NCBI GenBank assembly: GCA_965655095.1
Contig: OZ296649.1
Span: 66,030,001 to 66,094,000 of the forward strand
Direction of reading: 5' to 3'
DNA: 64,000 nt
From: Haplodiscus bocki
Taxonomy: Eukaryota
Part shown: piece after piece, positions 1-64,000 of the stretch
Layout: each line of letters starts with the position of its first letter
Numbering within the stretch: the first letter of the stretch is position 1
Notes under the pieces: generated by a model
The model's database searches: none
What the model was told of the DNA's origin: nothing
Seen by the model: the letters and a program-made list of their open reading frames with translations, nothing else
Program-made: the position numbers and the translations under genes

Positions 1-617
1 CTGGTTGCCCACTATTTTCTGGGGTCGGAGATTCAGGCGTACCTGGGATGGGTGTTATTTGTTGGCATAACTGGAGGGGGATAGGTTGGCGATTCGGAGT
101 ATAGGGTGAAAACTGGGCGGGATTGCCAATTACTGGAGTGAACATTTCATCATTTCCGTCATCGGAGATCAACGAGGTTGGCGGGGTGATTGGATATGTT
201 GGGGCAGAGGTGCCGGACAATGACATTTGTTCGTGTTGCGCCGCTATTAGTTGGGTAATGGCACTGTATGTATCAGAGACGTTGTTTGGCGTTTTCGGAA
301 TAGGTGATGAGCAAAGTGAGTCGATTTCACTCTCATCACTGGATAAGTAAATGGGTTGTATTTCCATTTCCTGATGTTCATCGATGGTGAATTGTGAGTT
401 CAATTCAACCATCGCTTTCGTTTTGAAATATTGTAACGCCGTGGTTTGAGGGGATATTTTTGAACTGAAGCGACTGATTATGTTGAAAGTTGAAATTATG
501 AATGAAAGTTGGGTAAAAATTTGGAAGGTATTCCTGGGAGAAAATTTCGCGGGTTTTTACCTTTCGTTGAATTGAGGGGGTTTCTCGGGTTAAGGCGGTT
601 AGGTTGAAAGAAATCAT
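1..617 (-). pseudogene. Degenerate Pro/Ser/Thr-rich accessory ORF in the retrotransposon 3' region
   Basis: ORF 405-617, followed after frameshifts by ~100 open codons (IQPIYLSSDESEIDSLCSSPIPKTPNN...). Same strand bias as the element. Confidence 0.35.
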
Positions 618-1413: not shown

Positions 1414-1998
1414 ATGAGCGAATTTGCTGGTAATTTACCACGGAAGTTTTTTAGTTTTCGTCATTTAGGTTTCGAATCCAGTGCGCTCAATTTGCCAAAA
1501 GAGCGAGAGTCAGAGAATCCCCAGAATGTTGAAGAAGTAGTTGGAACGAGTACTGTTGAAGTTGGTGAGACATCAAAATCTCCGGCAAAAGTTATGTCCG
1601 TGTTGCAAAATGTACCAGTATCGAGTGGAGTTGTAGAGTCAGGAAGTCTGCAGGAAGACCATGAATTGACCATTGCTGAGAAGGATTGTGTGCTGACAAG
1701 TAGTGAAGAGGATATGGATGACTTGAACGCGTTTGTGGATGAAAGGTTGCAATTTTTGTCAGAGCGGGGTTTGGAGCAGCTTGTTGGAGACGGGAGTGTG
1801 AATGTGGAGGAGATACTTAGTGGAAATTTAGCAGCTGTTAGTAGTCAAATTGTTGAATCTGGAGGAGCTATTGGACCTGAAGTCGATCAGGGAAGAGTCA
1901 CGTCTGTGTGCCCAGGCTTGACATCCAGTGCTGATGTGGAAGGGAGTCGTTGTGAGGTGTACTTCTGGTTGGGATCATCTTCTATTAAGACTGCATAG
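1414..1998 (+). CDS. Antisense acidic accessory ORF in the retrotransposon 3' region (last ~15 aa are chimeric across the deletion junction)
   Basis: 194-aa stop-free ORF, E/V/S/G/D-rich, with a helix-like segment EDMDDLNAFVDERLQFLSERGLEQLV. No family recognised. Confidence 0.45.
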   Translation: MSEFAGNLPRKFFSFRHLGFESSALNLPKERESENPQNVEEVVGTSTVEVGETSKSPAKVMSVLQNVPVSSGVVESGSLQEDHELTIAEKDCVLTSSEEDMDDLNAFVDERLQFLSERGLEQLVGDGSVNVEEILSGNLAAVSSQIVESGGAIGPEVDQGRVTSVCPGLTSSADVEGSRCEVYFWLGSSSIKTA

Positions 1999-4680
1999 CC
2001 AGCTGCCTGAAAGCTTGCATCAGTCATGAGCACCAGTTGTTTACCAGGTAATGGTTGACGTAATGCCAGCTGGCAACATCGGTCTAGAGCTTCGTTTATT
2101 TCCCTGAACTCTTTCATGATATCAGGGGTAATCGGAATTTTAGTTTTGGCGTCAGTTGTTTTGAGTAGTTGGAAGAACGGTGTGAGTCGTTCTGCCAACC
2201 TGGGTATGTAATTTGGGTAATAATTCAAGAAGCCAAAATATCGTTGAAGTGCTTTTTTGGATCGTGGAAATTTGACTTTTTCGAGGAATTTGGCAATCTT
2301 CAGTTTTTGAGTGGCAACCCTTTGGTTGTTATTGTTCGTCCAAGGAAATCTACTTCTTGTACTCCAAAATGGCATTTGGCCATGCTGAGTTTGAGACCAG
2401 CTTTCCGTAGACACTGGAAAACTGCTTGTTGATTTTTGATCAATTGTTGCGGGGTATTGGCGGTTATGCCAATATCAACGACGTCTTGTGCGCATTGGTC
2501 GGCTTTGATGACTGGATCAAGGTATTCGCGTATGAAGCTCAAAAATGCCGATAGGGAACGGCTAAGTCCTTGTGCCAATCTTCGGTAGGCGAATGTTCTA
2601 CTTGCAAAGTTGAATGCAAGGAGTTCGATTGATTGTTGGTCAGCCATCTGAAGGCAGTGGTATGCCTGGGACCAATCAATTTTGCAGAACAAGTTTTTCA
2701 CAGCCATATGATGTGCTGCATCCGTCAGTGTACTGACCGGATGGTTGCTGTTGATGTAATTATCTGCGATAAGTTTGTTAATTTTCCTGAGGTCAACCAA
2801 AAAGCGTAGTTTCCCATTTGGTTTCCTATGTGCGAATATTGGACTAGCATATTTGCTGAAGGGTAGTGTTGTTATGATTCCGTGTACTTGTGTAAAAGGG
2901 CTAGTTCCACTAGGATGTCGTCCTTGAGGTTGATGGGCGCAGGAAGGCTTTGACTATAAGCAGGCCTGTTGTCTAACGGTGTGAGTTGTACTTTGAACTC
3001 TGTATTGATTGCGATGTCAAAGCGGTGTCGTGCAAAAATGTCATGAAATTCCACAAGTAGGTTTTCGACGGATTGTTTGGCTTCCGGTTGTGAGGTAGAA
3101 TCTGTCCAATCGAAATTGGATAGAAATTGGTTTCGAGAGTTGGTATTTTCTATTGGGTTTAATTTTTCTAATTGTTCCAGTTCCCGTAATTCATTGAGTA
3201 TACGTGTCTGAATGGGCGTCGGTTCCTTTTCATCGCCCGGATTTTGTGGTGTTGGGAACCAGTAGGTCTCGTTGACTTCGTCAGTTTTCGATGTCTTCAG
3301 AAGGCTGTTTATATAATGAATAGCGTCGTCATGACTGTTGTTCAGAAGGTACCTCACTGAGGTAGGATTGACTGGTCGAATGTGTTTTGTTCATTCAGGA
3401 GTTAATATTGAGAAATTCGCAATGTGCGTTCCTTTCTTTAGGGTGCAAGGGTGGTCTAGAAAATTGCTAGTTTGGACCATATGTTTGTTATTTTGGGTTG
3501 ATGAAAGAGCCGGACAGATGAGAAGATCTTCGTCGTTCTCTAGAAGTGGCGAGGTTTGAATTATTCCTGTCGCTTCGTTGTCTGTGTAGATCTGTGACTT
3601 TACCCAAATTGTGGTTCTTCTTTCCGGTTGTAGTGTGGTTTCTACTGGGTTCAGTATAGGTTCAATGACGTTTGGGTACGTCCGGTCTTCATTTTTCAAT
3701 TGCATTGAAAAAAGGGAAAGTTCAGGATTCCTTGACGCATATCGAGTATGGTACTGTTGCGTTGTAGGAATAGGAGATCGATCAAAGGGCTTGTGAGATC
3801 TGTCATGACTATGAATTTTTCTCTGAAGATAATGTCACCGACTTCGAATTGCAATTCTACTGTTGCAATAGGTGCTTCTAACTGTCCATTGGCAACCGTA
3901 ATTTGGATCTCAGGTGGTGGGCCTTCATTTAATATTGTGTGTGGAGCCAGTAATCGGATTTTGCGTAAGTGGGCTTCCGGAATGGCGCTTGACAAAGCAC
4001 CCGTGTTTATGAGCCCGTCAATATTTAACTCCCCAAAATCCATTGGAAAGTAAAGCATTTTTCGCTTTTTCTTCAATGGCAAATTTGTTGAAAGCGAGGG
4101 AAACCTTGTGAGTCCATCTGGTGTTACCTGGAGCAGTAGTAAAATTTGGTCATCAATGACTGCTGTTTGCCTTTGTTGATTTTGTGGTCTTGGCGGAAAG
4201 TTTGGTAATGCTGAAGTATCAGGTAAATGTGGGTTCACTGTCCACAAATCTATCAATGCATATCGTAGTGCGTCTGATACGTGTGCATCCGTAATTAAGT
4301 CATCACTTTCAATTTGGTTGTTAGGTTTGTTGTAAGTATCCTTGTACTCCACTTTGTCTTGATCGTATATTTCTTCATCCCAATAGGGGTCAAATCCATA
4401 TTGAGAGTCAACGAAGTATGCGTCGTATGCAACGACTTCTGGAAGGGGTCTGAATTCAGTGTCAAAGTTGTCTGTGTAGTCGTATTCGTATGTTGGGAAA
4501 ATTTTATGGATTTTGTGCATATTATTATATCTTCGAATGTAGGCTTTTTCCATTTGCTGCTGCCAGACAACTGATGGAATTCCTGTGTTCGACGTTCGAT
4601 GAGAGTGGTATACTATGGTGGGTGGGTCAGATATAAAGTATTGTCTCACTGATGTGTAATCTGCCCATTGGAGTCTTGGC
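1953..4680 (-). pseudogene. pol: pol: N-terminal extension, aspartic protease, spacer domain, reverse transcriptase, truncated RNase H
   Basis: Protease LINTGALSSAI (DTG mutated to NTG). RT motifs LVDLRKIN, FCKIDWSQAYH, RLAQGL, AQDVVDI (YVDD degenerate), KCHFGVQEVDFLG. RNase H MTDASFQAAGYAVL, then abrupt loss after KYTS at ~1953. pol is in the -1 frame relative to gag. Confidence 0.9.
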
Positions 4681-4684
4681 TTTT

Positions 4685-6429
4685 TTAGCCAAAAGAGTTT
4701 TTAAGAATTGATGAAGGTCCTGAATGGGTCAAGTTTCCTTGTTTTTGCCCGTCATTTCGATTTTCTGGGTGATATTCTTGTTTAAACCGCTTGGGTCTAT
4801 TTGCTGCGTTGGGACCGCTCCAAAACTTTTCTGGAGGGTGGTTTGTCCGTTGACAATGACGACAAGGTGGAAATGATTTAGATGTCAAAGGTTTTATATT
4901 TTGATTTGAAGGATCATTTCTTCGCTCCTGTTCTTTCCTCATCCTTTTGCGACAATCTCGGATGACGTGGCCCGGCTTTTTACAATAGTGGCATATTACT
5001 TTTGTTTGTTCAGTGTTTTTTTGGTTGTCTTTTGTGGGTACAGCTGTCATTGTGGGTATTGTCAGCTCCCCATCGTTTTCTAAACCACTGAGTTCTAATT
5101 CTCTTTCCAGATGTGCAACTATTTGGTCGTAAGTGCCATTTTCCAGATAGGCTAAGTTGAGTGATCGTTTCAAATGAAGTGGCAATTTCGCGTGGAGTAG
5201 ACTGTCAATCATGTGTTGGGCGTTGTCACCGAACGCTCTTTCGGCACATTCGTTGAGTTCTTCTAAGAAATCGGGAAGTGATTTCGTGTTAGGATCGAAT
5301 GTGAGTTTAAGCCATTTGTGCTTAGCCGTAGCTTGAGATTCTGCTTTAACATATTTGCGTCGAAACACAAATAGGACGTCATCAAGAGTTTTCTTGTTTG
5401 ATGCACTGATATTTCTAAATGTTTGAAGTGCGTCTTTTCGTAAGTGGGCGTGAAAATGGTTGATTTTCATGGCTTCTGTCATCTCCGGTTGCATTTTGAG
5501 CATTGTGTGAAATAGGTCTTCAAAGAGTTCGAATTTCTCATTTTTGCCATCGAAAATTAGTGTTTTTGTGGATACGGGTTTGAGCATTGTGGCTGCTTGT
5601 GGTCGTTATTGGGTTGCAGTTCCAGCAATTGCATCAGCTAGGCGGTTGATGGATTTAATTGCGTCTGGGTTTTGATTTCTTGGTGTTTGCTCAACCATTG
5701 GTAAACTGTTGTCTTGTGATACTTGTGTTGACAGGTTCTGATATTGATGTGATGGTGGGTTGCGTGGTGTTAAAATACGTCCTGTAAGGAACTCGGAGAA
5801 GTGATTTGGTTGGGCTGTTTGTCCTGTCACCATGTGATGAATGGGGTTACTAGGTGCTGTCACCATGTGATGAGTTTGTGCTTGCTGGTCAGAATGTGTC
5901 TCAGGGACCGACAACTCACTTACCTCGTCTGGAATGTTGTGTCGAGTCTCATCATTTACATTTGATACGTCTAGTGTATCGTTGTTACTGGATGCGTTTT
6001 CAAAAGAGGCATTAATCCCTACACGTTCCCTACGCTCCAAATTTGCAGACACACTAGTCACATCCCGTCCAGAAGATGCATTTATTGACCTGATTGCTAA
6101 TTCAATTTTAGGAGTAACAATGTTATCGATGGCGGTCAAAATTGCATTCTGTATCCTATCTTCAACTGTATCAACAATTTTGTTCATTTCTCTGTCAATC
6201 CTCTCATTAAAACACCTTTTAAAGTTTTCACACTCATCGCGTTTGCATTAACAATTGGATCATTACTGGAAGTACCAACGGTAAAGTCTCGGTCATTAGT
6301 GCCTTCATTGACCACAGTGTTTTCTTTTCTCTCACTAACGGCATTGCCATTGATCATGTCTTGATCAAAGTCATCTAATTGGCTAAGAAGTTTTCTATTT
6401 GACTGCCTCTTCTTGCGAGTGGAAACCAT
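4685..6429 (-). pseudogene. gag: gag/ORF1 (one frameshift near 6240, one in-frame stop at 5606-5608)
   Basis: ORFs 6184-6429, 5606-6187 and 4685-5587 join up, the last two in the same frame. Zinc knuckle CHYCKKPGHVIRDC plus a second degenerate CRHCQRTNHPPEKF. Confidence 0.88.
5824..5865 (-). promoter_or_regulatory. Duplicated primer-binding-site-like motif TGGTGACAG (5865-5857 and 5832-5824)
   Basis: TGG directly after an LTR-terminal CA is the canonical PBS position, complementary to tRNA CCA. The unit CATCACATGGTGACAG occurs twice, 33 nt apart. Confidence 0.65.
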
Positions 6430-6758
6430 GTTTGTTTCAATAAACGAATTGTTCTTGGAATTATAAAATTAACGGCAACATAAGAACTCAATGATAATTT
6501 TACAAAACAGTGCTTGCTGAGGATTTAAATAATCTGCGATTAAACCGTGTCAGTTTAAAAATTTGTCGCTGTGAACTGTTTTTCAGGATGGCAGTCTTTC
6601 TTTTGTTGATGGTTTTTTGTCAGTAGTGGGTGTCGCGTTATTGCTAACGCTTAAACAATTGCACGGGGAAAGAAAAGGAAATTTTCTAAACGCGTTGGAT
6701 TGTGGTTCAACACGATTGGCCCAACGCACAAAATAAAGACACGCGCGCGTTAGCTACA
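5866..6758 (-). repeat. 5' LTR of family A element (TGTAG...CATCACA), containing the first ~188 codons of ORF1/gag
   Basis: Starts TGTAGCTAACG at 6758 and ends TCATCACA at 5866, directly followed by TGGTGACAG. Homologous copies at 28718-29511 and 63652-64000 stop at this same point. Confidence 0.75.
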
Positions 6759-6761
6759 TTT

Positions 6762-8480
6762 TGTAGCTGGTAGAGGAAAGCGGCTTGAATATTACTGACT
6801 TACTCGCTTACCGGACGGCAGCCTTAGTTCTCTCCCTTTCACTTTACATTACTCTCCTCTTCCCTTTTACTTGATTCCCTTTCCTTTTAACGTTATTTTC
6901 TTTCCATTCTTGCTTGGTTAAATTTATTCTAAATTCTCTTCCTGCTTCTCATCGGACAAAAATGTTCCAAATCCCATTTTCATTCTAACTTAGAAAAATT
7001 TCCTCTTTCCGTCTACAAATTCTATACTCTTGCCATCGGAGTATAAACGGTGTCCACTAACGCTAGCTTCGGTATTAGCGTGTGGGGATTCCGCTGACGA
7101 GCTCCGGTTCTGAAGCATGAGTGGATCTTAAACTGCACGACCCCCACGAGGTTCTTAGGCAAAGAGAATTGACGTTACTCATAGATCATTCTCACCTCGT
7201 CTGCGTCCGTGGAATTTAGAAATCATTCTAAATTTCGAGATACATAATAAATATGCAGAACCCGTCCCTTTTCCAAATTTCAAACTATTCCTTCTTCATT
7301 GACATTGTTGTTTGCGGCTCTCTCCTATTGGTCAGTTATTTGATTGCTATATAACAGGGTATAAATACCCCGTACTCTCTAATTCTCTTCATTCGCTTCC
7401 CTACCGTCAACCGGCCTATCTACCCGAGGCGAAACTCTCTTCCACTTTCCTTTCCTTATATTCTTAGAGCTTAATTCTTGCTCTGAAAATATTCTAAGAC
7501 AATTTTAAAACTTGTCTTTGCCTAATTTCCTCATCGTCTCTTCGAAACATTCTAAGACAATTATAAAACTTTTCTTTGCCTAATTTCTTCATCAACTATT
7601 CGAAATATTCTAAGACAATTTTAAAACTTGTCTTTGCCTAATTTCCTCATCACCTCTTCGAAATATTCTAAGACAATTTTAAAACTTGTCTTAGCCAAAT
7701 TTCCTCATCGTCTCGTCGAAATATTCTAAGACAATTTTAGAACTTGTCTCAGCCAAATTTCTTCATCGCCTCTTCTAAATATTAACCTGTCTTAGCCAAA
7801 TTTCCTCATCGCTTCTTCGAAATATTCTAAGACAATTTTAAGACTTGTGTTAGCCAAATTTCTTCATCGCCTGTTCGAAATTATTCAAAGACTTTTTTGC
7901 CTGCAAAATTGTCTTAGCCGCAAATCATCAACATCCCGAAAATATTCAAAGACTTTTCCGCCTACAAGCAGTATCCCAGCCGAAACTAGCAATCATCCAG
8001 CAACCAGTAGCAACCATCAGCAATCAACAGTAATCAACAACAGCCAACACCAACACGACCATTTCCACATTCAAACTTAAAAGACCATATGAGTAATTCC
8101 CCTTTCCCATACGCGCAGTCATATTTCCTCCACGGTTCAATTTATTGAATTTTCACTGTTTATAATTTAAAATTCTTTTGTACTCTTCTTTATAGCTCAC
8201 AAGTCCTTGCTTGATTTCACGCAATCCCTTTGTTCGCACGTTAAGCAAGGCACCCTAATGAGACTTATAAATAATAACCGTCGCTTTAGCATAGTAGTGC
8301 TGACCGAGTCAAACGCCAGCACAACGGAGTAATTAATAAATTTGCAAAACCCCTACCACGTGCGACATGGGTCACCCTTTCCTCCGTTTTACCTGACATT
8401 CGTCAACCAATTGGGTGACTCTACCTACTGACGTCAAGATCGTCATTCTATTTTTAATCAACACATCAAAGGGTTTAACA
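6762..8480 (+). mobile_element. Putative solo LTR (family C; TGTAG...TTAACA) abutting the family A LTR
   Basis: TG...CA ends, TATAAATA at 7361 with TCATTC ~28 nt downstream, AATAAA at ~8335, internal tandem repeat. No TSD seen; orientation uncertain. Confidence 0.45.
7487..7960. repeat. Tandem repeat, ~58-bp unit, ~8-9 copies, each intact unit with an internal hairpin
   Basis: ATTCTAAGAC recurs at 7491, 7549, 7607, 7665, 7723 and 7824, with degenerate copies at 7781, 7883 and 7944. The unit contains AAGACAA-TTTTAAAAC-TTGTCTT. Confidence 0.95.
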
Positions 8481-10827
8481 CGAGTTTTACATATCATCAT
8501 CATGACATCACTTTAATAATAGTAACAAAACAAACTTCAAAGGAGAAATACCGAAAAATCATGACTATGAAAAATATGGTTAAGGAATCTGGATAAATGT
8601 TCAAGATTAATCAAATCATGTTTGCATGTATGGTTCATTATTATGGGCGGTCATTCATGGTTATAATATAGTAGGTATGACAAGGATATTGATATTGAAC
8701 TTCATGCACAGGTTTTAACTTTGAGCTAAAATATAATGGTCAAACGTGGGCACCGTGACCGTTCTTTGACCAGGTAAAAATTTTCACTCACGGCTTATTA
8801 ATAATATGCACTAGGTAGTTTATTATTACATAATTAAATAATTATAGGCTTATATAAGCACATAGCAACGTCTTCTAGTTAAATATGGTCATACTTCGAC
8901 TTTTCTGACTTCGTTTGGCCGTAATTCGCCTTTTGTTTAAAAGCGACCACTCGCTTTGAGCAAAGTGGTGAAAATTAGGTCCTTGTGACCAATTTTGACG
9001 ACGCTCCAGCAGCGCTTTTGCTTGGTCAGAATTTTGACAAGAATACTTGTTTTGACCAATCAAATTTAAGCATAAGACTGCAAGTTAATTGAGCACTATC
9101 AGCATTCGTTTAAATCCATTCTCTCATGATACAAGCTTCTTTGCTATTTGTATGGATTTTGCTCAGTAATAAAATAAGTGTACAAATATATAAATATACG
9201 TAGGATAGAGTATATGTATATTTTAATATTTAAATATGTATCATATTTTATAAAATGAGGGGGGGAGGAAATTTGTCCAGCGAAGTAATTAATAAAAGTT
9301 TTGTCAGTTTTAGTCTTCAAATAGGGGCAGAGCATATCCCTGTGTGCCCATGTTTTGTCCATTAAGGTTAACGGAGTAGACTAGGCCGTCACAAGCGGCA
9401 GCCTGCGACACTGATGCATTTGCGTGACCCGCCTACCATATCAGCACATAAGCAAGGCATAATGAAGCATAGTAAAATCAATTTTGAAAAAGATTTCACG
9501 CGGGAAACGTGGAACACATTATTGCATGTAAAAGGATTTCACTTTTTTCAAAATTTATGGAAAAAATAGCAGGCCACTAACCATCTTAAGTTGGTTTACC
9601 AGATGGTGCCACCTTCAGCTATGTAAATGACAGTGTAATATTAATATAAATGAAAATTAGCTGAATGGCTTTCTAATTGCTGCCCTTCCGAAAATTACTC
9701 GAGGAATATTTTCTCCCCATTTGTATGGAGAAATTGTCAAACAAAAGAAGTTCCCTACTTTGTCGCACTTTAAAAATGAATATGTTTGGATTGTTGCACA
9801 AAACGTATAATTTATGAATGGCGGCTGCGAAGAAAAATAAGTTCTTTACAAAATCAACTTCAAAACCACTTCAATATTGAACGCTCACACAGGGCAGCAG
9901 TTTGCTGTGGGCAACGACTCGGCTGAAATAAGATGCTGCCTAATGCTGCAGGCAACAACTTTGGTAACATAATATTTTCAAACCTCTGATTGTTCCTCTG
10001 CGTATCTGATTGCCTTCTCCCAAGGTGAAAACAAAATCGATATTCTAACTTATGTTTCGCTTTTTTATTAGGTACCTTAGATAAGTTTTCCCATTTAATG
10101 CATCAAGCTTAATGTGAAAAAAGTGCAAATTATGCTTCCCCTAGGAGGTTTTTTATCATTTAAGGGTTGAATTTCATTTCAGCAGTGCTTAGCAACCAGT
10201 TTTTAAAGATGTTCAAAAGTATCTTTTAAACAAATTATCTGTTCATTTCTTTGAATTTTTGTTCACTTCTTGTATCTACTGAGCCTTACCCTGTAAAGCT
10301 ACTATTGGTTGAATACTAAAGTTGTCGCAGCACGTCTGCGAGGCTTGTGGACAATTGCTCCCTGAGCTGAAGGACAAACCAAGCTCGTCGACAACAAACT
10401 AAAAACTCAAGACTGAAAAACTTCATTTAAACATTTAAGGCATCAATTTATATTAAAGATACGTATTAGATACGTATCCATCTTGTATACACACATGTAT
10501 GTAATTCATGTAAACGATACGTAGTGGTCACGTATCGTTCCATAATATATAGTCCATGTAAAAAGCACGTATACGATACGTGTAATTCCGGTGAACTGAT
10601 CCTGATTGGGACGGAACAGGTACGGAGCAAACGGATATTCATTTACTTCTTTACTGTATTTTTGTATAAATATTAGGTGCTAGTTTATATAATTAATCTA
10701 ACTAATTAAAATATAAATCCACCTTTTTATCGACTTGTGCAGTAAGCAATGTATTTAGACTGACAGTTTCATAAAGTTTTCAATAGCCTAACTATTATTA
10801 TAGAGCTTGACTTCAAAAGTGATTATT

Positions 10828-12080
10828 TGTTCCGTATGTGTTCCGTCGTTATTAATCTGGTGACGTCACTAGAATTTCAGCCAATCCGCTCTGCTACTAC
10901 GCTGTTTCACTTTCGACGGACACGGAACGGCTACGTAGCCACATGATTCCTTCTCCTCAGTAGCACTGCGGAGAGCAGTGCTACAAGCGGCTACGTATTC
11001 GCTCCGCAATGCTCCGGCCAAAGTGAGGCGTGAGCTGAAAGAAACGTGGAACGGGCTAGGAAAAAGCCTAGTTTTGTTCCCAATAGTGGATTTAATCGAT
11101 GCAGTATGTAACCACATGTAAACATGAATTTTTCTAGCATTTATACGAACTTTTTTTTATGCATTTTATTTATTTTTCCGATGCATTCTAATAATTTCCT
11201 CTCATGGAATTTTTTTAATCTATTGTTTATGTTATTATTTATTGTGTCGGCGTGGGAATAACCACTTTGATGTCCATTTCCGGCGGATCGGACCCGTACT
11301 TCTTCCGTCAAAAGATGGAAAAGACGCGGTCCGTGAAGGATGAAATGGACAGAGAGGTGTTTTTTTCCCGCCAAAGTCGGCATTTTTCCTTCTATAAATA
11401 ATCTGATTAAAGTACTTTTCCCTATTTCTACCTTGATTTGGCGTGTAAACAATTATGTTTCCCGCCAAGGAAAGGTATAAATAGAAGAAACGAAAGTACC
11501 ATTTTTATTGTAGAAATTGTAGCCTTCTGGTATTGTACCTTTTTTATAAAATCATTGATTGTTTGCTTTTATTGAAACCCTTTTCCCTGATAATAGAGGA
11601 GATCATCACTTTGGATTATAAAATAAAAACTTCAATTCGGTCTTCGCTGTTGACAGAACTTTTCCCTCATTCTCATGGCAACTTTGAGAATTAAGCGGAA
11701 AATAGCAACAGTTTCGAGAGAAACACCTACGAATACCAGGAATAATCAGTCACAGAACAAGCTTGATCCAGAAATGGCTCAAGAATACATCTCCCAGGTT
11801 TCTGAAGAGATCGAAGGGAGGGTAACTAAAAAACTCTCAAAAGACATCAGTATGACAGAGTCTCGTATCTTGGGTGCCCTGTCAAAGCTTGACGAATTCC
11901 TTCTGAACCCGCAAGTTCGGACTTGTTCCGTAGCCGTTCCGGGAACATCCAGGAACAGCAACTCAGAAAACCGGGAACCCAATGAGGATCGTTCCCTGGA
12001 CGATCCCTGCCCCGAAGCGAGATTCTCTTCTCATCACTCTGGCAATCTAAATAGCTCAGAGGCGGAAGACTATCCTCACA
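10828..12080 (+). mobile_element. Solo LTR-like element, family B copy 1 (TGTTCCGT...CCTCACA)
   Basis: Homologous over its length to 31784-33009 (-) and 57929-59140 (+). TG...CA ends; TGACGTCA at 10861 followed by CCAAT. Confidence 0.78.
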
Positions 12081-27921: not shown

Positions 27922-28717
27922 CAATTATTGAGGTTTATTTAACAAAAATCGGAAAAACTTTCAAAATTGGAAAAAGTACATAAATTGATGATGAAATTGA
28001 CGCTTTAATACTTTGAAAGGCATCTTTAACATTATTGGTAGGCGGCAAAACTACTGGTGTTAGCCGTTTGTTTTGTTTTGAAACAGTTAAAATTCAACTA
28101 TCAAATACACGTTGGAGAAAAATTATCGGAGGTCGAGTGCAATGTTTGAAGTTCATTTGGAAACGTTTTTGATACAACATGAAACGAAAAAGAGAATTAT
28201 CGCGGAAAAATCTCAATCTATTGGACTTCAACTATCATCTTTCCACTGACAACATAACTTGACATTGAAACCAGAAAACGCAAGACTTGTCTATGACGAG
28301 TCCTTTACATGCCGAGCGCCCGAATCTAGATAAAATAGGAAAATTTTTTAACAAAAACAGCTTTACAGAAACACAATAGCTCTTCATGACATTCGAGATG
28401 CATTTTCGAAATTGTTTTCCTCACTTGCAACTAAAATCTCAGAAGAATGTTTTTGAATTGTCAGTTCTTATCGCGTTGTTTTAAGCTTCAGAGTTACTTT
28501 CGTCAGGCGGTGTGACTCCGATTTTTTAGTTAAAAGTGTTTGTTTTATTTACCTTGACAAAGGCCAAAAGTAGCCTAGAAGCCTCGTCTATAGTTGCGGC
28601 AAGATCTCTAAATTTAAAGGGTTCTCCACTTGTCAAACTTGAAAACCCTGTTGAAATCGGAGGTACAACCAGGAGCACTTTCTTCAAAAAAATTTTAACC
28701 TGTTTTTCTGAAAACTT

Positions 28718-29511
28718 TCTGAGCGTGTGATTTTCGGTCAAACTGTGTTCTCGGGATCAAAAATTGAATTACCTCGTCACGGATACTCCGTTGAGACTCA
28801 TCGTTTGCGTTTAGTCCGTGAAATGCGTCGTTCCTATCGAATATTTTCAAAAGAAGCAGTGATCACTAAATGTTGTCCACGAACCGAAATTGCGGCAACA
28901 CTAGCAGCGTGTGTCCAGATGACGCACTCATTGACCTGATTGCTAATTCAGTTCACGGTGTGATTTTATCAACAATCACGGTCAATATAGCGCTCTGGAT
29001 CTTATCTATAACCGTTTCAGCAACAAAACCCAATTCCCTAGTAATTCTATCAATAAGACTTCTTTCCAACGTTTGAATTGTTACTGCAATCTCATTGGTT
29101 GCTACTGCGCCGTTATTATCATCAACAGTAAGTTCTCGGCCAACTAGACCGTTATCGACTTCAACATTTTGTCTTTCACTATTCAGTGTATCGCTAATCC
29201 GCCAAGAAGCCTCCTGTTATGCTGTCTCTTCTTTCGAGTCGAAATCATCCTTGCTTTATGAAGTGAGTTGCACCTAATAAACAAATCGATCAACGAGTTT
29301 CAAAACAAACAGCAATCAAACAGCTGCATGTTTGAAATCAAGTGTTTTCAGTTTTGTTGATAGTTTTGGGGCAAAAAATTTGGGAGATGTTCTGAGAAGT
29401 TTGAAGTTTACTTCGGGTAAACATCGGTTCGCAATTTTGTGGCTAACCATTGGGTTCGGCAACGAATCAACATACACGCTTGCTGACGTCATCCCTGTAA
29501 GTTCGACTACA
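28718..29511 (-). mobile_element. Solo LTR, family A (old, diverged)
   Basis: Homologous to 5866-6758 (e.g. CATTGACCTGATTGCTAATTCA). Begins TGTAGTCG with TGACGTCA at 29484. Homology ends at the LTR/PBS boundary. Confidence 0.72.
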
Positions 29512-31783: not shown

Positions 31784-33009
31784 TGTCACGACAATCTTTT
31801 GGGCCTAAGTTTTGTGTAGTCTGGCCGCGGAAGATGCCTGCTTCAGGATGAGGATCACTCTGGAGTCGTCCTCATTCGTTCCCTGGTTTTTCCACGTTTG
31901 TGTTCCGGAATGTTCCCGGAACGGTTTCGGAATGCGTATGTATCTGTTGGTTCGAGAGAAATTCGTCTAATTTAGTCAGAGCACCCAAAATGCGGGACTA
32001 TGTCCTGCTCAACTCCTGGGACAGTTTTTTATCGACTCTGCCTTCAATCTCCTCAGAAACTTTTGTAATATATTCCTCGTTAATTCTAGGAACGGAAGTG
32101 TTTCGTGACTGGCCGTTCTTAGGATGTTGCTCTTGTGTTTCACTTGTAACGGCTGCCAATTTTCGTTTGTTTCTCAACGTTGCCATTTTTTGAAGGGAAA
32201 TGCTACGTGGTTATGAAGACTGAATTATTTTGTATTTGTTAATAAACTTGGGATTATAACAAAAATGTTATTCTTTAAAATAAACAACTAGTCGCAATCA
32301 GTACAGTCAACTGATAATCAAAGTGATATTAAGAATCTCCCTTTAATTCTTTCGTTTCTCCTATTTGTACCTCTTCCTTGGCGGGAAACTTAATTGTTTA
32401 CACGCCAAGTAAATGTACAAGGTAGGGAAAAGTACTTTGATCATAATAATTACAAAGAAAATATGCCGACTCTGGCGGGAAATAAACACATTTCCCTCCA
32501 TTTCTTCCTTTACAGACCGCGTCTTTTCCATCTTTCGACGGAAAATATACGGGTGTGATCAGTCCGAAATGGATAACAAAGTGCTTATTCCCGCGCTGAC
32601 ACAATAAATAATAACATAAACAAATGATTAGAAAGATTTTCCATAAGAGGAAAGTATTGAAAAATGCACCAAAATTAAGTAAAATACACTAAAATAATAA
32701 TAGAAAATCATAATTACATGCTTGGTATTACAATTGCATCAATTTAATTCACTTTCGGAACGAAACTAGGCTTTTTCCTAGCCCGTTCCACGTTTTTACT
32801 AGCTCACGCCTCAATTTGGCCGGAGCGTTCCGTGGCGGCTACGTAGCCGCTTGTAGCACTGCCTTCCGCAGTACTACTGAGGAGAATGATTCTGGTGGCT
32901 ACGTAGACGTCCCGTGTCCGTCCAAAGTGAAACAGCGCAAAAGCACAGCGGATTGGTTGAAAGTTTTGTGACGTCACCAGATCGGTAGCCTCGTAACGCG
33001 TACGTAACA
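31784..33009 (-). mobile_element. Solo LTR-like element, family B copy 2 (ORF MATLRNKRK... from 32186, one in-frame stop)
   Basis: Inverted homologue of 10828-12080; TGTTACGT...CGTGACA ends. Confidence 0.78.
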
Positions 33010-34914
33010 AAATATTCATTCCTAGCTTAGAGTAGCTGCTAGGTAGGTACGTGTTCGTTACCTAAAAGTTGCGTCCCAATCTGGTTCAGTACATGGGAGT
33101 GCTACGTATAAAATACGTAGAATTTGTAAGAAAATATACTGGGGAGTGATACGTATTTGATACGTATCAACTACATGTAAAAGCAATGAAATATTACTGC
33201 AATATTAATACATGAATGGAAATTGTCTAAAGTATTGATACAGTTTCTTTTAATTTTCAAGCAATCTGGGGATGTCCTTTTCTTTCTTTATGCTCGTAGG
33301 CTTCGCGGATATACTGCGACAACGATTTTGTTTACTGGGTTGAGCACTTGATTGTACCACAAGAAATAGGGCGCCGATTTTTAGATTTTACCCGTGGTAG
33401 CAGAAGAAGTTGATCAAATAATAACAGATTCTGCCTCGTCTTTTGAGACTTCTAAAGTGTGGAAGCGATCAACGTTTGAGTCGCTGGATGAAAATGTAAA
33501 ATGGCCAGACCCTATGCTATGTTTAAACGCAGGCCACCAAGGTAAGTAGGCGCACAGGATTCAGCAAACAGAATTTCTTTCGAAATACTTTAAAGGTAAC
33601 GGCAAACTGCATCATCTTATTCGAGTTGTGATGAGGTGGCTGAGGATTGGTAGTAGGATAACAACGGAGCATGATCAATCAGATTCATCCTGCAGGGTAG
33701 TCGCTTTTCGGGCAGGGCGTCCTGCCAATATAAAAACCTTTCTTAGAGTCTTTTTGAGAAACCACCAACTATTGTAAGCACAATTATAACTAAGAAACAT
33801 GCTAAAGTTTTGGATATGAAAACGGAACTTCGAGGGGTTCTTGCTGGTTTTAGAATGAGGAAATTGCAATTTCCGTTATTTATTGATGAGAAAAACAAGT
33901 TAATCAGAAACTCCAAGGTGCCTCTTTTGTTGGAGAAGAAAGTATCGACTGACTCACAGGACCGATGTAATTCACATCTTAACGCAGCGGGAAAAAACAT
34001 ACTCAAAACAAGCAACAGTAACAAAAAACGAGAAAAGTGAAATCTTCCATTTCACTTGGGCGGAAGGAAAAGAAGCATTTGAAATGATGAAAAAACCAGG
34101 AAAAAGTCAGGTGCGTCGTAGTTTTTAGGAAATCGCAGAGGAACTTCAGAAGCAGGCGCCGAAAGCATTTAGGACAGGGGAACGCAGTGACAAAGCGGAA
34201 ACGGATGGTAAGAGGTTCAAAAAAAGTAACGAGCCACTATACAAACTTTTTAATTGAACAAAATGACGCTTAAGAAGAGCTGCGAAACTCCAAGAAGTGA
34301 ATGAAACTGCGATTCTATTGGAATCATCTGACAGTGCGGAACATTTCCCAGAAGTGAAAAAGGCAGAAGAGCAACCAGAGCCGAGCCTGGCGCGATTGAG
34401 TAATATAACTGAACCGAATTTAGCATATGCGAGGCGCAGTACGAGTGTAAAAATTTCTCCAAGTACGTTTGGTAACCCCTTTAGATCCACAATGTGGGGC
34501 AGGAAGATGAACCAACTGTCAGTGCTTGAAGCAAAAGCAAGAAAAGCAAAGAATCCTGTGTGAGCCGCGCGCGGAAGCATCTTCCTTTCAATGAGAAAGC
34601 CTAAATCTTGATTAAAGTCAAAAGTGACAAAGTTTGAACTGAAGCAGAAGTTTGTGAAAAATTTATTATCATGATGCTATTATGTTACCTTGTGGTAATA
34701 AATGTTAGTCTTGTCAATTACTGTAAACGAAAACTTGATTTGAGTGGTTGGTGCTAGGTCAAGTTACAGGTCAGAAGGGGGTGGGGTTGAGTGCTGAATT
34801 AGGGTCAAAATATTTCCAATATAATTCCAAAAACGGCCGAGTGGGAGTGACCAAATTTAGATTTAAACAATAACGGTGAGTGTTTATTCTGATAAAATTA
34901 AATTGGATCAGCTT

Positions 34915-37900
34915 GTTGTGAACGTTACAATTCTATCTAACAGAACAGTAAAAAAGGAAACCTACCTCTTATTTCCAATCTGAAGCAGGAGAACGTTATC
35001 AAAGCAACAGTTAGTTTTTGTGAAAATCGGACAAAGTTTAAAAACCAGAGTTTGTATAAGCAGTTTTTCCTAGTTTCAGAAAAAATTCAGAACTCCAGGG
35101 AATCGATTGTCAACTTTTCAAGTAATTGAACAGTTTTTTCTGCTAACCTAAAAACAAGGAGGGTCCAGTGCTTTTGATTGTCTACCTTTTCGCTACGAAA
35201 GTTTTTTTCCGTGCAGGTGGAGATGTTCTCAAGCGGGAGTTTCAATTTCAGTCTACTCTATCCCAATACCAATTTCTTTTATTCTGTTTGAAAATATCCT
35301 ATTTTGCGTCGAAAACATTTTTGACAGAAAAACAATTTAAACAATGGTTTTAATTTTTTTTTCTTTTACTGATTTTCCCCATGACTTTTTCAAGAAAATG
35401 GAAAAATACAGATACGTTTATCAGGAAAATTTTTATGTAATTGTGTCAAAAGGTCAATTTATCAGTAAAAACAAATGAGAGTTTCTTTCAAAATTCTATT
35501 ACAAAAACTTTTGACTGTTGTATTTTCTCCAGAGCCAAAAAACACATCCTTTTCACGAAAATTTATCCGCTTCAGCATATCGTACTATCATTTCCACGTT
35601 GAGGTAATGCCGAAAAACTTCATTTACTAATGAAGTTCATCGATGTTGGAACTAACTTTTATGCGAAGTTACCTTGTAAACTTTTTTGATCTAGGCCTCA
35701 ATGAAACTCTTCTACTTGTACTGATTTTGTCTTTTGGAAATTTTTCGATTCCGTTCCTGGCATCAGAATCCTGATTGCCTGAAAACTCGAAAAAAATCCG
35801 CTAATATTGATTCATCTCTGTGTTCAAACTCACATTCCTTTGTATTTACAAAAACTTGATGTCTTTTGAGAACGTCGCAATCGAAAACTGCAAACTTGTA
35901 AATCAAGCTCCCATATGAAAGAACCAATCGTTTTGATCGTGGCATGAAAATCTTGACGATATGAAAAATAAAAAAGTGCTGTTAAATTCGGTTCATTTCA
36001 ACTATAGCAGTAACTTTTCTAGTTGAATACGTTTCTTTCTGCGAAGGACCAGGCCGAAAAAGTTGAACTTGTAGAAGAAGATTTGAGTGAAAAAGTTTCT
36101 CACTCTGATCCCTACATTAGTTTTCGATCATCCAGAAAACCCCAAAGTGCTACTAATGTCAATCTATCCTGATATTTAACCTCATATTTTTCCGTAACTA
36201 CAAGTTTCATTTCTTCCGTAAAAAAACTCAAACGCAAGTCTTATAGTTGTAGAGCATGATTTGTTTGAAAAACAACCAGTCTTTTTTGTCCTAACATCAA
36301 CTTACTGATTATCCTAAATATCCTAAAATCCAATTGATTTTGATTTCTTGCGACATGCAAACAGGATCTTCTCCCCAACTACAGGTTTGATTTCTTCCAT
36401 TAAAGTGTCAATCGAAGGCTTCATACTTACAAAAAAAAGCTTCAGTTATTTGAAAATCATTCTTTTTGACTTTTACATCAAAGTGCTGCTAGTTTGAAAA
36501 ACCGGTGAAATTCTTTTGATTTTCATTTGTCTCCACATAGAAAAGCCGATTTCTTTTTAACTATAGTCTTGATTCCTTCTATCAAAGTTTCATCCAATGG
36601 CATCACAATCTTGGGGAAGTATAGTTTCAAAACACATTCTCCTTGATTGTTCCACAAGAATCTTGAATATTCGAAAATTTATAAGTTTGCTAATTTTATC
36701 CGTTTGTCTAGACTATCGAACTAATGTCTCTTTTTGAATACAGCTTTGATTTTGCCCGTGGAGGACTCACCATCAGAAACTTTAATTGTGCCGGAGGTTT
36801 CGAAGGCCTTTGTTATAATTGGTCTTTTTAACACCTTGCTGATAACCCAGAGAATGCGAAAAGTGCTAATAACATCGTTGAATCTCGACTTTTTTTTCCT
36901 ACCTCTGTAACTACAAGAGAGAAGCAACCGCAGGTATTACACTATTCGAGCAGGATTTCTTTAAAAAATAACTCATTTTCATCCTCCCATGACTTTCCTG
37001 ACATTCCAAAAATTCCAAAAACTGCTTTAAATATACTTTAGTCTCGACAATCAAATTCATATATCTCCGTAGCTAAAACTTCATTACTTCCATCACGGTA
37101 AAAACTTGAATTTTCGCACTCGTAAAGAAAGTTTGGATTGAAAAATTACTTTTTTCGTTTCTTGAATCAAATCCAGATATCCCCGAATTTTTGCAAAAGC
37201 TGCTTTCGTTGTTGATTCAAGTCAGTTTTCAAGCCCGACTTCAACGGTAACTAAAACTTTGATTTTTTCCGAGAATCTCTCAATCAAAAATTTTACGGCT
37301 GTAGACGAGTATTCATTTAGAAAAACTTTCTTGATCCATGAATGGATCTCATGAGAGCCCAAAAAATCCAGAAAGTGCTTTCAAATTCGCTTCATCTCCA
37401 TCTTCAAATCCGTTTATCTCCGTATTTACAGAATTAAAAATTTCCACGAATGTCTCAATCACAACGCGCGTACATGTACAAAATTATTCGAAAAAAAATT
37501 CTTTCTGATCTTTGCATAAACTTCCTGATAGACCAAAGAAACGAGAATTGCTTTTTCGTTGCTTTTTGTCAAACTTCAAACTCATAACTCTCATCAACCA
37601 TAGCTTTCAATTGTTTTTTACACTTTTGGAGCCTGATTCAGTTTTATCAGGTATCATCTTCTTATTCAAAGCAAACTCCTGCTGGGCCGGAAAATCAAAA
37701 ACATATTTACCGATTAACCTTGACATTCAGAATTCAAGCCCATTTTTCTACTTGACAACAGTTTTGATTTCTTTGAAACAGGTGTGAAATAAAAAATCAA
37801 ACAATTGTAGAAGAAACTTCGATTTAAACATCAGTCGTTCTCATTATTGCAACATTGAGCCTTTAAATTTTCAAATTATTGCCATTAATGTTGATTTTTC

Positions 37901-40900
37901 TCGATATTCAACATCATTTTTCTCCAAACTTTTGAGGTTCGCTTTCACCCGCGAAGGCTCAACTGCAAGTTTTACACTTTTGAAGAGGTAATCTACTTCC
38001 AAATCTCTCATTCTGATCCTTGCATCGAATTCTTGATAATCGGACGAATCCAAAAACAACTTTCTAAATTGTTCGATATCGATAAATCGAAATAAAAACT
38101 CCCCTTAGTTACAGCTAGAGTTCTTACATGAAGTTATCAATCAAATGTTTTTCAAAAAGTAGGAGATGTTTTGATCTGGAAATGTTTCGTTTAGCACAAT
38201 GAATCAGAAATTAGATAATCCGAAGAGTCCAGAATCTGCCAATGACAATGATTCAAGTTCGTTTTCAAACTCCTTTTCCTCCTTAAGTACAGTTTTGATT
38301 TCCTCCATGAAGGTTACATTAAAACCTCTACAGTTGTAGAGGACGGTTCGTTTGGGAAAGTCCTTGTGGATTCCTGCATCGAACTTTCAGGGTCCGAAAA
38401 TTTCACGGAACGAATGCAAATTTGCTTCTTCTCCGTATTCAAATCTTTATTCCTCCGTACTTACAGGTTTGATTGGTTCCGTGAAAATCTCATACGCAAG
38501 GTTCAATGTATTTGAGGAGGATTCAGTTGCAAAAAAAAATAATTTTGATCCTCGCTTCAAATATTTGACACCCCATAAAAACCCAAAAAGTGTTCCAACA
38601 TTGTTTAATCTCGATATTGAAATACATTTTCGTCGCAACTAGATGTTTATTTTCCTCCATGAACGTATCAAAAGAAAGTCTTCCAACAGTGGAGCAGACT
38701 TTGATTGAAAGTTCATTCATTTATTTCCTTGAATCAAAGTCCTGATTTCTGGAAGTTGCCAAAAAAATGCTATTGATTTCGACTCAAGTCCGTGTTCAAG
38801 CTCAGTTTCCGCCGTAACTATAGGTTTCATTTCCCCCATGAATCTCAACAAGTCTCAATTAAAACTCCACGGTTGTAAAGAATGATTGAAATAAACAAAA
38901 TTTTTACTGTCCCCGATTTGATTTCCTGAGGGTCTAAAAATTTCAAAAATGCCTGCAGGTTTGCTTTACGTCCGTCTTCATATTTCTGCGTTCTCACAGG
39001 TTTGATTGGTTTCATCAAAACTTCAACGGCAAGGTTCATATTTGTAGAGGAGCACTCGATTGGGCAAAAACTTTCGATCTTTCCGTTATTTCTTTGACAG
39101 CCCAAAATGCCCGAAAAAAATTTTTGAAATCTTTTCCAAATTTTCAAACTCACATTTGACAATAAACACACGTTTCATTTGTTCAATGAAAAGCTGGAAC
39201 GAAGATTTCACCTTCTCAGAGCCGGCTATGGGACGGAAAATCAATATTGTTCTTTTTGACATCAACCGCCTGATGTTCCTACGTATCAACCGCTAGGAAA
39301 ACTTCTCAACATTCAAACACAAAATTCTCCGTAACCAAAGCGTTGATCTCCTTTAAATGGGTCTAAATCGAAACTCCGATGTTTTTAACAGAGGTTTCGA
39401 TGAAAACATCAGTCGTTTCCATCGTTGCATCACAATTTTGATTATTCAAACTTTCCTAAAAAAGCTTGTGAACATGGTGTCTCTCGATATTCAATTTCTT
39501 GTTTATTCCTAACTAGACGTTTGACAGCCTCTACCGCAAGACTCAATAACAACTTGTGAAGTTTTCAAGGAAGTCTCTATCGAAAAACGTTTCTTCTGGA
39601 TCATTGCATCAAATTTGCGATATTCCATAAATCCAGAAAATGCAATCAATGTCGTTTTATCTTTATTTTCAAAGTCTTATTCCTCCGTGACCACAGGTTT
39701 ATTTTTTCGATAAAACTCTCTATTGTTAGCTGCTTAAATAACTGGATTGATTGTTTCTCCAAGTTCCACCTAGCGTGAATCTCCGAATGGTCCAAACAAT
39801 CCGAAAAATGCTATTGACATTGATTTTTCTGGACCTTCAAACCCATATTTCCCCGTAACAACAGCTCTGAGTTCCGCAAAGAGGTCTAAATAAAAAACGT
39901 AATACTTTTAAATGAGGCTTCGGACAAAACATCGATTCTTTTGCTCGTTCTAAAAATCCTGAGTTTTTGAAAAAGGCTAACAGTGCTATTATTGTAGTTT
40001 AAACTCAAGACTTAACATTTTGTTTTGCTATATCTAGAAACTTCATATCTTCCGCGAAAATTTCAATCGCAAGGTTTACAGCTCTGAAAGAAGAATCCAA
40101 CAGGGAAACTTTGATTATGATAGTTGCAACAAACTCCTCATAGACCAAATGATCAAAGATTTGCTTTTAATAAAGTGTGGTCTTGATCGTCACATACATG
40201 TTTGTCCGTAATTACAAGTTCCGTTTCCTCAAGAAAGGATTTAACCTAAAATTTTTCATCTTTTCATTAGTATGGCTCTGAAACAAACAAATCATATTAT
40301 TTGTGCTTTTATTTTGTATTATCTCGATATTCAGATCCTTTCTTCTACGTGACTAGAGTTTTTTCACTTCTCCCATGAAGATTTGAATGGCAATTTTTGT
40401 GAAAAAAGGGCAAATGTTGCAAGAAGAACTTCTCTTTTGATTCCTTGCACCAAATTTCCGGTATTCGGAAGTTTCCAAAAACTGCTACTGTTAATGAATC
40501 ACTTTCGTGAGCCGGTTCAATTTTCCCCATAACTACATTTTTGATTTCCTCCGGGAAGACTTCACCTAAAAACTCCACAGTTGTGAAGAAGGAAAAAATC
40601 TAAAAATATTTTATATAATTTTTTCGATCTTCGCATCAACGTCTTGATAGATCAAAACCCCAGAACTTGCGAATATAACTTTTTCGCGAAATTCAAAATC
40701 ATGTTACTCAATAACCTCAATAAACACAGGCTTCGCTTCTTCCATGAAAGACTCGACCAAAAAAATTTCACCAGTAAAAGTCAAATATTCTAATGAAAAC
40801 TTTCAGTTCGATCCTTGCATGAACTTCACTTAGTCCAATGAACCTGAAAAAGGCTCTAAATTTTGTTTCAAATCAAATTTCAACAACATTAATCTCCAAA

Positions 40901-43900: not shown

Positions 43901-45110
43901 GAGGAAAAATAGCATTTTTCAGAGAAACGTTTCTCTGATTACCGAATCAATTTCGGGAGAGCCCTGAAGTTTCAAAAAATGCGTTTAAAACTCAATCATC
44001 TTGACGTTCCAAAAAATGTCCATAATTTTAGGTTTGATAGTAGTTCCCTGAATGTCTCAACGGACAGGTTCCCACTTGTAGCGGAGGCTTCGAAAAGATT
44101 CGGTCTTTTTGCAACCTCGGAATGTTGAGATTCGAAAGTTCCAAAGATTTTTTTAATTGTTGGGTGATCTCGTTCATTGAACTCAGGTTTCTCCGTGATA
44201 CAGGTTTTGTATTTTCGGTGAAGGTTTGAACTGAAAGTTATCTAGTTATAGATGAAGATTGAAGTGGAAAAGAAAATTTTTATTCTTTCATCAGCTTCCT
44301 GATAGTCCAGGAAATATGAAAAAAGATAGGGTTTTTATTCCAACGTGATGTTCAACTTGTTTATTGTCCGTAACTGTAAGTTAGATTTTTCGTATCAAAC
44401 TCCTAATTGAAAAATTGTTTTCTAGCGGGATGGTTTGGGTAGAGGAAACTTCGAGTTCGGCTACTGCTTCAGAATCCCCTTCCTCCGAAAATTTCAATGA
44501 ATAACATAAATTTAGAATTGTTTTGAGAAAAAAATTCAATTTCTTCCGTAGGTGCAGTCTCCGTTTCCTCCATCGAGGTGTCAATCAAAAACAGCGCCTT
44601 TGTAGAAGAATTTTTCATTGAAAAGTCTTTCGGTTTCATCCTTGCTTCGAAATTCTTACAATTCGATTGTTTGGAAGTGTTCCATTTTGGTTGATTCATC
44701 TCAACTATCGAGCTAATGTTCTCCTTGAAAGCAGTCTTGATTTCATCCGCTAAAACTCCAAATGAAAACTTTTGACCTGTTGAAGTGGAATTGAAAGAAA
44801 GATTGTTTCCTTTTGATACTTGCAATATTTTCCCAGTAAACCAGAAAATACAAAAAGATCTATTGATGTGGTTCTATCCCAGGGTTTTGCACCACATTTC
44901 TCCGTATCCACTGCTTTGATATCATCCACGAAGGAGTCCAACGCAAGTTCAACAATTTTCGAGAAGGTTTGCGTTGAAAAGTTTTTTGTTTTGATCCCTG
45001 CATCCTAATTTTGTTGTTCCGATATTCCAAACGAAGCTACACCTAATTTTGGTTCAACTCCATCTTCAAAGTCCTTTTCCTCCGTAAACTAATTTTCTTC
45101 TTTTAAATGA
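34915..45110. repeat. Composite repeat block A: ~0.8-kb unique header plus ~50 diverged ~178-bp units
   Basis: Anchor CTCCGTAACTACAGGTTTGATTTCTTCCATGAA recurs every ~172-180 bp (e.g. 43489, 43669, 43846, 44366, 44544, 44721, 44900, 45080). Confidence 0.88.
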
Positions 45111-45289
45111 AGTCCTAAATCCAAAAATTGATAAATCAAACCACAATTTGAGCAAAGCAGTGTGGTTGAGTATTACATTCGATTACTACCTAATCCTTGC
45201 ACAAAGTTAGCTGAATTGAAAAGATCACAGATAATTGCAAACATCGCCCGTTAATGCTTTTCCTCAAGAGATTGAAAGAAATTTATGCC

Positions 45290-63651: not shown

Positions 63652-64000
63652 TGTGATGAGTGTGTGTTAGCCGGTCAACGTTTCTTTCATTGACCAGCAA
63701 ATCACTTCCCTCTACAGTATAATTACCAGGAGTCTCATCGATTTTCTCAAGTCCGAATGTGAGTTCATTCTACTTGAGGTGGTCAATTGTAGGCCATCAG
63801 CCCTTCCTGAAAAGTCCCTTTGGTCAACTTCCAATACATTACCGTCTAGACTCCGCCTTGATAACGCCTTGGCTGATTTCATAATAAATTCTACTCTTGG
63901 AATCATTAGGTTTTCTTTTGCAGTCAATACTGTGTCTTGGACTCTCGTTTCGACTGTTGTGATTACACTATGCACTTCACTCTGCACGTTACAAACAAAG
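63652..64000 (-). mobile_element. Family A LTR 3' part (solo or 3' LTR), cut by the window end
   Basis: ORF 63712-63987 (TVETRVQDTVLTAKENLMIPRVE) is homologous to TVEDRIQNAILTAIDNIVTPKIE. Ends ACTCATCACA and is not followed by TGGTGACAG. Confidence 0.78.

Follow-up and report, generated by a model that had tools for sequence, protein, structure and literature searches.

The window analyzed here is a stretch of 64,000 nucleotides from the genome of Haplodiscus bocki (contig OZ296649.1, positions 66,030,001 to 66,094,000 of the forward strand). It contains, on the minus strand, a broken copy of a Gypsy-type LTR retrotransposon belonging to a family that we call A, together with older family A LTRs and LTRs of a related family, B. 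The features are as follows.

9411..9415, minus strand: 5' target-site duplication ATCAG (GTCAG after the 3' LTR; one mismatch).
8368..9410, minus strand: 5' LTR, first part, beginning TGTCGCAGG, which shares 96.8% identity with the 3' LTR and opens with 32 codons that form the end of the ORF lying ahead of the 3' LTR.
6631..8367, minus strand: nested, unrelated TG...CA solo LTR of 1,737 bp with a 4-bp target duplication, interrupting the 5' LTR.
5866..6630, minus strand: 5' LTR, second part, with the leader and the first ~188 gag codons; ends TCATCACA; 96.6% identical to the 3' LTR.
6427..6429, minus strand: gag start codon, located within the LTR, with A at -3 and G at +4.
6208..6223 (approximate), minus strand: gag frameshift of this copy; the 3' LTR reads the same way there.
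6074..6231 (approximate), minus strand: predicted long-helix codons (residues 67-119).
5855..5865, minus strand: first primer-binding site, read M-V-T; 9-nt match to tRNA-Leu(CAG) (11 nt in locus L002).
5822..5865, minus strand: 33-nt in-frame unit remaking the LTR end, then a second primer site with an 11-nt match.
4685..5865, minus strand: internal gag (linker, capsid core, CCHC knuckle), with one stop at 5606-5608.
1947..4700, minus strand: broken pol (protease, RT, start of RNase H).
2..517, minus strand: remnant of ORF4, the sense ORF that enters the 3' LTR left of the window.
10322..12079, plus strand: solo LTR of family B, whose 5' end is approximate; it has a gag start of its own inside the LTR, and the ORF ends at CCTCACA.
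28715..29511, minus strand: remnant of an old family A LTR, 33% identical in amino acids to the N-terminal region.
63652..64000, minus strand: 3' end of an old family A LTR, terminating at CATCACA.

The nested solo LTR has the ends TGTCGC...GCGACA, and a 58-nt unit is tandemly repeated in it at 7487-7884. Family B has also left two older LTR remnants, at 31841-33018 and 58362-59087. Positions 35400-52150 hold a long degenerate array with a period of ~175 nt and a larger duplication whose copies are 10.65 kb apart; read on the minus strand, this array resembles a decayed repeat protein.

The first-pass annotation proposed that gag starts inside the LTR, at the minus-strand ATG at 6429 (context ACAAACATGG), and is translated through the LTR end and the primer-binding site. 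The ATG does lie 564 nt ahead of the junction between TCATCACA and TGGTGACAG, and the LTR does end at 5866 (junction 5866/5865). The other limit of the LTR had been placed at 6758, which is wrong: the real LTR comprises 5866-6630 plus 8368-9410, about 1,804 bp with TG...CA ends, and the boundary was misplaced because of the solo LTR nested at 6631-8367. The junction was also described as in-frame coding sequence (H-M-V-T). It is so in the gag frame, and is present twice in the window copy, 33 nt apart, but the ATG of the window copy is out of frame with it, as there is a frameshift near 6208-6223 and the ATG frame closes after 81 codons; the distance from ATG to junction is 564 nt here versus 565 nt in intact copies. 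Since the 3' LTR shares the frameshift, the gag defect is likely older than the insertion, and this defective copy was probably mobilized by the proteins of another copy. Its internal gag matches the Pfam families Retrotrans_gag (E 1e-4) and zf-CCHC (E 2e-4), with a weak fold match to capsids (best E 0.046), and no integrase was found in its pol. Three further parts of pol stand out (window 3100-3700, minus strand; P0124 and P0126): a stretch of ~220 aa ahead of the protease, the protease-RT interval, which in two relatives bears a Pfam mark for dUTPase, and ~200 aa that separate RNase H from integrase.

A second copy of the LTR at the 3' end of the element was the test on which the first-pass annotation had staked its claim, and it is present about 2 kb left of the window (1,803 bp, G000:C2:66027888-66029690, 96.6-96.8% identity). 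In each full element the N-terminal region is present twice, as had been expected; solo LTRs may in addition act as expressed promoter-plus-ORF cassettes, as the first-pass annotation suggested. A genome search for further LTR copies gave 5,214 candidates, 40 of which were scored. The LTR starts with the same TGT in 24 of 30 loci and ends with the CATCACA motif or a one-base variant of it in all 30, and what follows is the primer site in 20 and unrelated DNA in 10. The two sister copies in the window had been said to break off at this junction as well; the one at 63652 ends exactly at CATCACA, while the one near 28720 stops ~5 nt short. Target duplications of 5 bp flank full elements, exactly in two (L007/L030 and L009/L023) and with one mismatch in L018/L026 and the window element, and are also found around three solo LTRs. 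Among nine young LTR pairs of the subfamily that we call AL, the duplication is exact in five and has one mismatch in one, the other three (one of them a truncated pair) having been left out of the scoring. Identity between young LTR pairs reaches 99.8%. Genome-wide, the start motif has 1,638 matches, often paired ~14 kb apart, and the junction motif 853, against 0 for the reversed-pattern control in each case.

The first-pass annotation also called for a host tRNA matching the primer site, and a tRNA-Leu(CAG) gene, called in two of the ten loci scanned, is complementary to it. The complement covers 9 and 11 nt at the two sites in the window and 11-16 nt in other A and B copies. At G000:C1:161.07-161.14 Mb there are tandem tRNA-Leu-like 3' ends at a spacing of ~424 bp, and the pattern has 903 matches genome-wide. 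A polypurine tract was also expected next to the 3' LTR, and in Ty3/gypsy it is about ten bases long; family A shows just GGGAG at that position, and the purine run of family B is longer. ORF4, which lies just ahead of the 3' LTR, enters it for ~33 codons in A and AL and ~25 in B, and this may account for the weak polypurine tract. The ORF4 tail within the LTR has a dN/dS of 0.12, compared with 0.98 and 1.62 in the shifted frames, and the LTR is thus coding at both ends. Full A and B elements (L040:7635-9426, L041:3-1883, L085:644-2873) also have a long antisense ORF between pol and ORF4, and these antisense ORFs share a C-x2-C...H-x4-H motif. A Pfam search gave no family for the antisense ORFs, for ORF4 or for the LTR-encoded region.

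Eleven of 17 5' LTRs with a detected start can be read from the in-LTR ATG through the junction, and three of these 17 give a full-length Gag of 581-592 aa. We compared the 188 LTR codons between subfamilies A and AL, as had been recommended at the outset, and obtained a dN/dS of 0.20 (pairwise NG86, 476 non-independent pairs), against 1.39 and 0.92 in the shifted sense frames. Four single A-AL pairs gave 0.18-0.22, with bootstrap intervals within 0.10-0.35. The LTR upstream of the gag start has a dN/dS of 0.72-0.96, or 0.81-0.96 over the A-AL pairs, and gag downstream of the primer site 0.13; the lowest block between the subfamilies is that of the predicted helix codons, at 0.10-0.21. Within subfamilies the LTR codons give 0.39-0.40, and the neutral baseline of the method is itself below 1 (0.52 between the LTRs of one element, on 77 differences, which are small counts). 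One antisense frame is also low, at 0.30-0.49, as expected because third positions are shared. The LTR-embedded gag codons are under purifying selection. When junctions were sampled by pattern, 29 of 30 were preceded by an A- or B-type LTR, and upstream stops numbered 64 in the junction frame versus 198 and 335 in the other two. The central claim of the first-pass annotation therefore holds at the level of the family, on the paired and solo LTRs, target duplications, tRNA match, open frames and a dN/dS of ~0.2.

Ahead of the start there is a stretch almost free of ATGs (at 100-200 nt for A, 0-300 nt for AL and 0-100 nt for B), suggestive of a leader; in subfamily A, one short out-of-frame ATG lies ~52 nt upstream of the start in most copies. 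The start context looks like the junction (ACATGGT), but we gave this no weight, as such a sequence is equally a good start context. Contigs from four runs of unspecified kind, when compared with one locus (L178), yielded nothing on transcript start, end or splicing.

What had been called an N-terminal Gag domain within the LTR is an N-terminal extension and not capsid. Two AlphaFold models have mean pLDDT values of 41 and 42, which is low confidence overall, and place the capsid at about residues 300-450. The deeper of the two has a single helix of 53 residues (67-119; pLDDT 67-76) flanked by disordered stretches. The embedded part comprises a basic start, one predicted long helix and predicted disordered linkers. 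The helix probably serves oligomerization; its hydrophobic period of 3.75-3.9 is the sole ground for reading it as a coiled coil. An ESM Atlas search was uninformative (best 0.81). A profile search of 1.84 billion representatives returned 2,110 matches, and the best 150 of these apparently come from the same type of element, with no named protein among them or among the members examined from eight clusters. Short proteins make up most of these best 150. Annotation would be liable to take solo LTRs of this clade for orphan genes.

The layout is shared by family B, whose RT is 62-66% identical to that of family A. Family B LTRs are 1.75-1.8 kb long with exact 5-bp duplications, the gag ATG lies 388 or 406 nt inside the LTR, and the H-M-V-T junction is in the same frame as in A. 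The LTR codons of B have a dN/dS of 0.15 (56 of 80 pairs, the other 24 being left out for indels). In a quick RT tree, midpoint-rooted, with 27 rows and 15 of 80 pol proteins, A, AL and B form one clade (SH-aLRT 97), and families with an env-like ORF form another (100); the in-LTR gag start may be the derived state. Pol relatives from outside reach only 21-29% identity. One Gag protein (P0375) has a best match of at most 58% in the H. bocki genome and is thus likely from another genome; it shares the A-type helix. Among its 120 listed relatives, 116 have MVTG within the first 300 residues, mostly at residue 196-198 in the same linker, and none has it after; P0375 and these relatives are known here as protein sequences alone. 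One separate metagenome contig has a decayed LTR end of the same kind.

The LTR end is not at the same place in all copies. In 17 A loci the LTR end and primer site form units arranged in in-frame arrays of 1-7 units with 33-nt steps, and arrays elsewhere have steps of 72, 84 and 42 nt. The 3' and solo LTRs of subfamily AL end 598 nt after the ATG versus 565 in A, and the AL LTR contains a decayed first primer site and a spacer resembling the internal unit of A; in one copy (L130) the first primer site is half-decayed. The 33-nt unit is missing from all 61 of the older LTR ends examined, and the longer AL LTR is thus most likely the derived state. As the LTR end is determined by where the tRNA primes, the shift in AL is likely explained by a history in which the unit was duplicated, its first primer site decayed and priming passed to the next one. 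No convincing old primer site was found further upstream within the LTR; a candidate remnant around LTR base 420, picked out by eye alone, is no more than chance would give. One family B element (L086/L087) has a deletion spanning the LTR end and the first primer site.

We read the LTR limits, the tRNA match, the open frame, the selection and the 33-nt boundary difference between subfamilies, all of them observed, as belonging to one arrangement, and we are fairly confident of it: the window holds a broken Gypsy copy from a clade with LTRs of 1.8-2.0 kb that take in the start of gag and 129-199 selected codons, in frame with a tRNA-Leu primer site, and in which the boundary would move with priming. 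The RNA likely starts 170-320 nt ahead of the in-LTR ATG, and its translation likely continues across the primer site. With reverse transcription beginning there, both LTRs would receive the N-terminal codons, and Gag would be made by the 5' copy only. The embedded part would put a basic start and one long helix before the capsid, probably for oligomerization. A primer site in a flexible gag linker could duplicate in frame, and decay of the first site would lead to priming at the next copy and a longer LTR; the whole layout probably arose likewise, by the primer site moving into gag. It would follow that the first DNA product is ~0.75 kb or more and that a Gypsy element is translated across its primer site. 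We think it unlikely, although worth stating, that a wider version of this account is correct, in which the clade probably occurs in at least two host genomes, its LTR has engulfed the oligomerization helix and is still growing by primer-site duplication, and solo and 3' LTRs express the helix as a dominant-negative brake on particle assembly. An LTR boundary that follows the priming position can move into a gene without breaking it, and here the intermediates are kept in one genome, so that the evolution of LTR length becomes directly testable. Annotation that divides LTR from internal sequence would truncate gag in these elements.

We considered the possibility that the layout is as described but arose differently, an ORF captured in an enlarged LTR having been fused to gag separately in A and in B, with the 33-nt shift a local and late event. 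The conventional relatives have no N-terminal extension, and the A and B N-terminal regions have no significant homology (hhalign probability 0.2; shuffles score equally), so that a single origin of the two layouts is not established on the sequences. The two families are, however, in one RT clade with the same junction frame, they have in common a faint E-x-R-I-x-x-A...P pattern in the helix, and the external relatives retain both the A-type helix and MVTG. AL directly implies a boundary move by primer switching. We regard separate capture as rather unlikely, and favor movement of the primer site into gag.

It might also be that Gag starts at the junction itself, which makes an ATG with G at +4 (M-V-T-G), and that selection on the LTR codons reflects a short protein produced on its own from 3' or solo LTRs, six of eight of which are open to their end. 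AATAAA occurs at codons 115-117 in most A (25 of 30) and AL (32 of 34) copies and in 13 of 30 older ones, but it is absent from the oldest subfamily and from the ORF of family B, and we rejected it as a general polyadenylation signal. There is no stop or conserved end between the LTR codons and gag, the frames of solo LTRs continue into whatever random sequence flanks them, the better start context is that of the upstream ATG, and every boundary offset in intact copies (565, 598, 388 and 406 nt) is in frame with gag. A junction start is thus very improbable, and the in-LTR start remains our reading. Finally, that the repeats are ordinary duplications or conversion tracts reaching into gag deserves practically no credence, for although an LTR as long as 1.8 kb whose 3' third is coding is unusual and family A has no more than GGGAG at the polypurine position (the purine run of family B is longer), the TG...CA ends, the adjoining tRNA match, the near-identity of young pairs and the target duplications on full copies speak against it, and those around the three solo copies refute it.

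In its proteins and ends the element is a member of Ty3/gypsy. Natural copies (L035, L041) have the PR-RT-RH-IN order and an RVT_1-type RT by Pfam, gag and pol are separate, gag has capsid and nucleocapsid, a primer site for a host tRNA is present, and two direct TG...CA LTRs lie within a target duplication; the closest PDB sequence is Ty3 Gag-Pol (E 4e-23). An integrase ahead of an RVT_2-type RT, as in Ty1/copia, was not found, and with respect to Bel/Pao there is no peptidase A17 match, gag and pol are separate, and the only matches of that kind are to DUF1759, in gag. The canonical description of the group, non-coding LTRs with gag after the primer site, is a different matter from the taxonomic criterion and does not apply here.

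The nearest conventional elements are the families with an env-like ORF (L226-L233, L236-L239), which belong to the same RT lineage (43-45% identity) and have the same tRNA-Leu primer site in five of six. They differ in having LTRs of 320-490 bp and no N-terminal extension, and gag begins directly at the capsid, ~490-1,080 nt after the primer site (five elements). Their extra ORF of ~800 aa (L227:4786-7131, L231:5892-8231), with a hydrophobic start in some, has no Pfam match and is env-like by that start only. HIV nef, foamy virus bel and MMTV sag overlap U3, and in these an internal ORF enters the start of the 3' LTR, as ORF4 does for 25-33 codons; the overlap in those viruses is at the U3 end only, and the likeness is one of layout. 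Some repeat-library entries have a coding sequence that begins in the LTR. In the ICTV profile the LTRs of Metaviridae are non-coding, with a U5 of 75-250 nt (PMC7879559), whereas in the present elements gag takes up at least 565 nt of R/U5 and U3 is also coding at its start. A full-text literature search, covering few subscription journals, gave no account of in-LTR gag at such a scale or of a boundary shift, and the portions of PMC3601003, PMC7175516 and PMC13524379 available contain nothing on this layout.

The closest parallel is Ty1. Its GAG begins only a few dozen bases short of the LTR end, with about a dozen codons inside the LTR versus 129-199 in the H. bocki elements, and it belongs to another superfamily and is primed by tRNA-iMet. 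We know of no second coding end or primer-site arrays in Ty1. The available part of PMC4974528 places the Ty1 primer site inside GAG and that of Ty3 outside it, so that the primer site lies within the gag ORF in Ty1 as it does here. The element thus works like Ty1 at its 5' end, yet is no member of Ty1/copia. The principle is already known from Ty1; what is new is its scale here, together with an LTR that codes at both ends and a boundary that has shifted.
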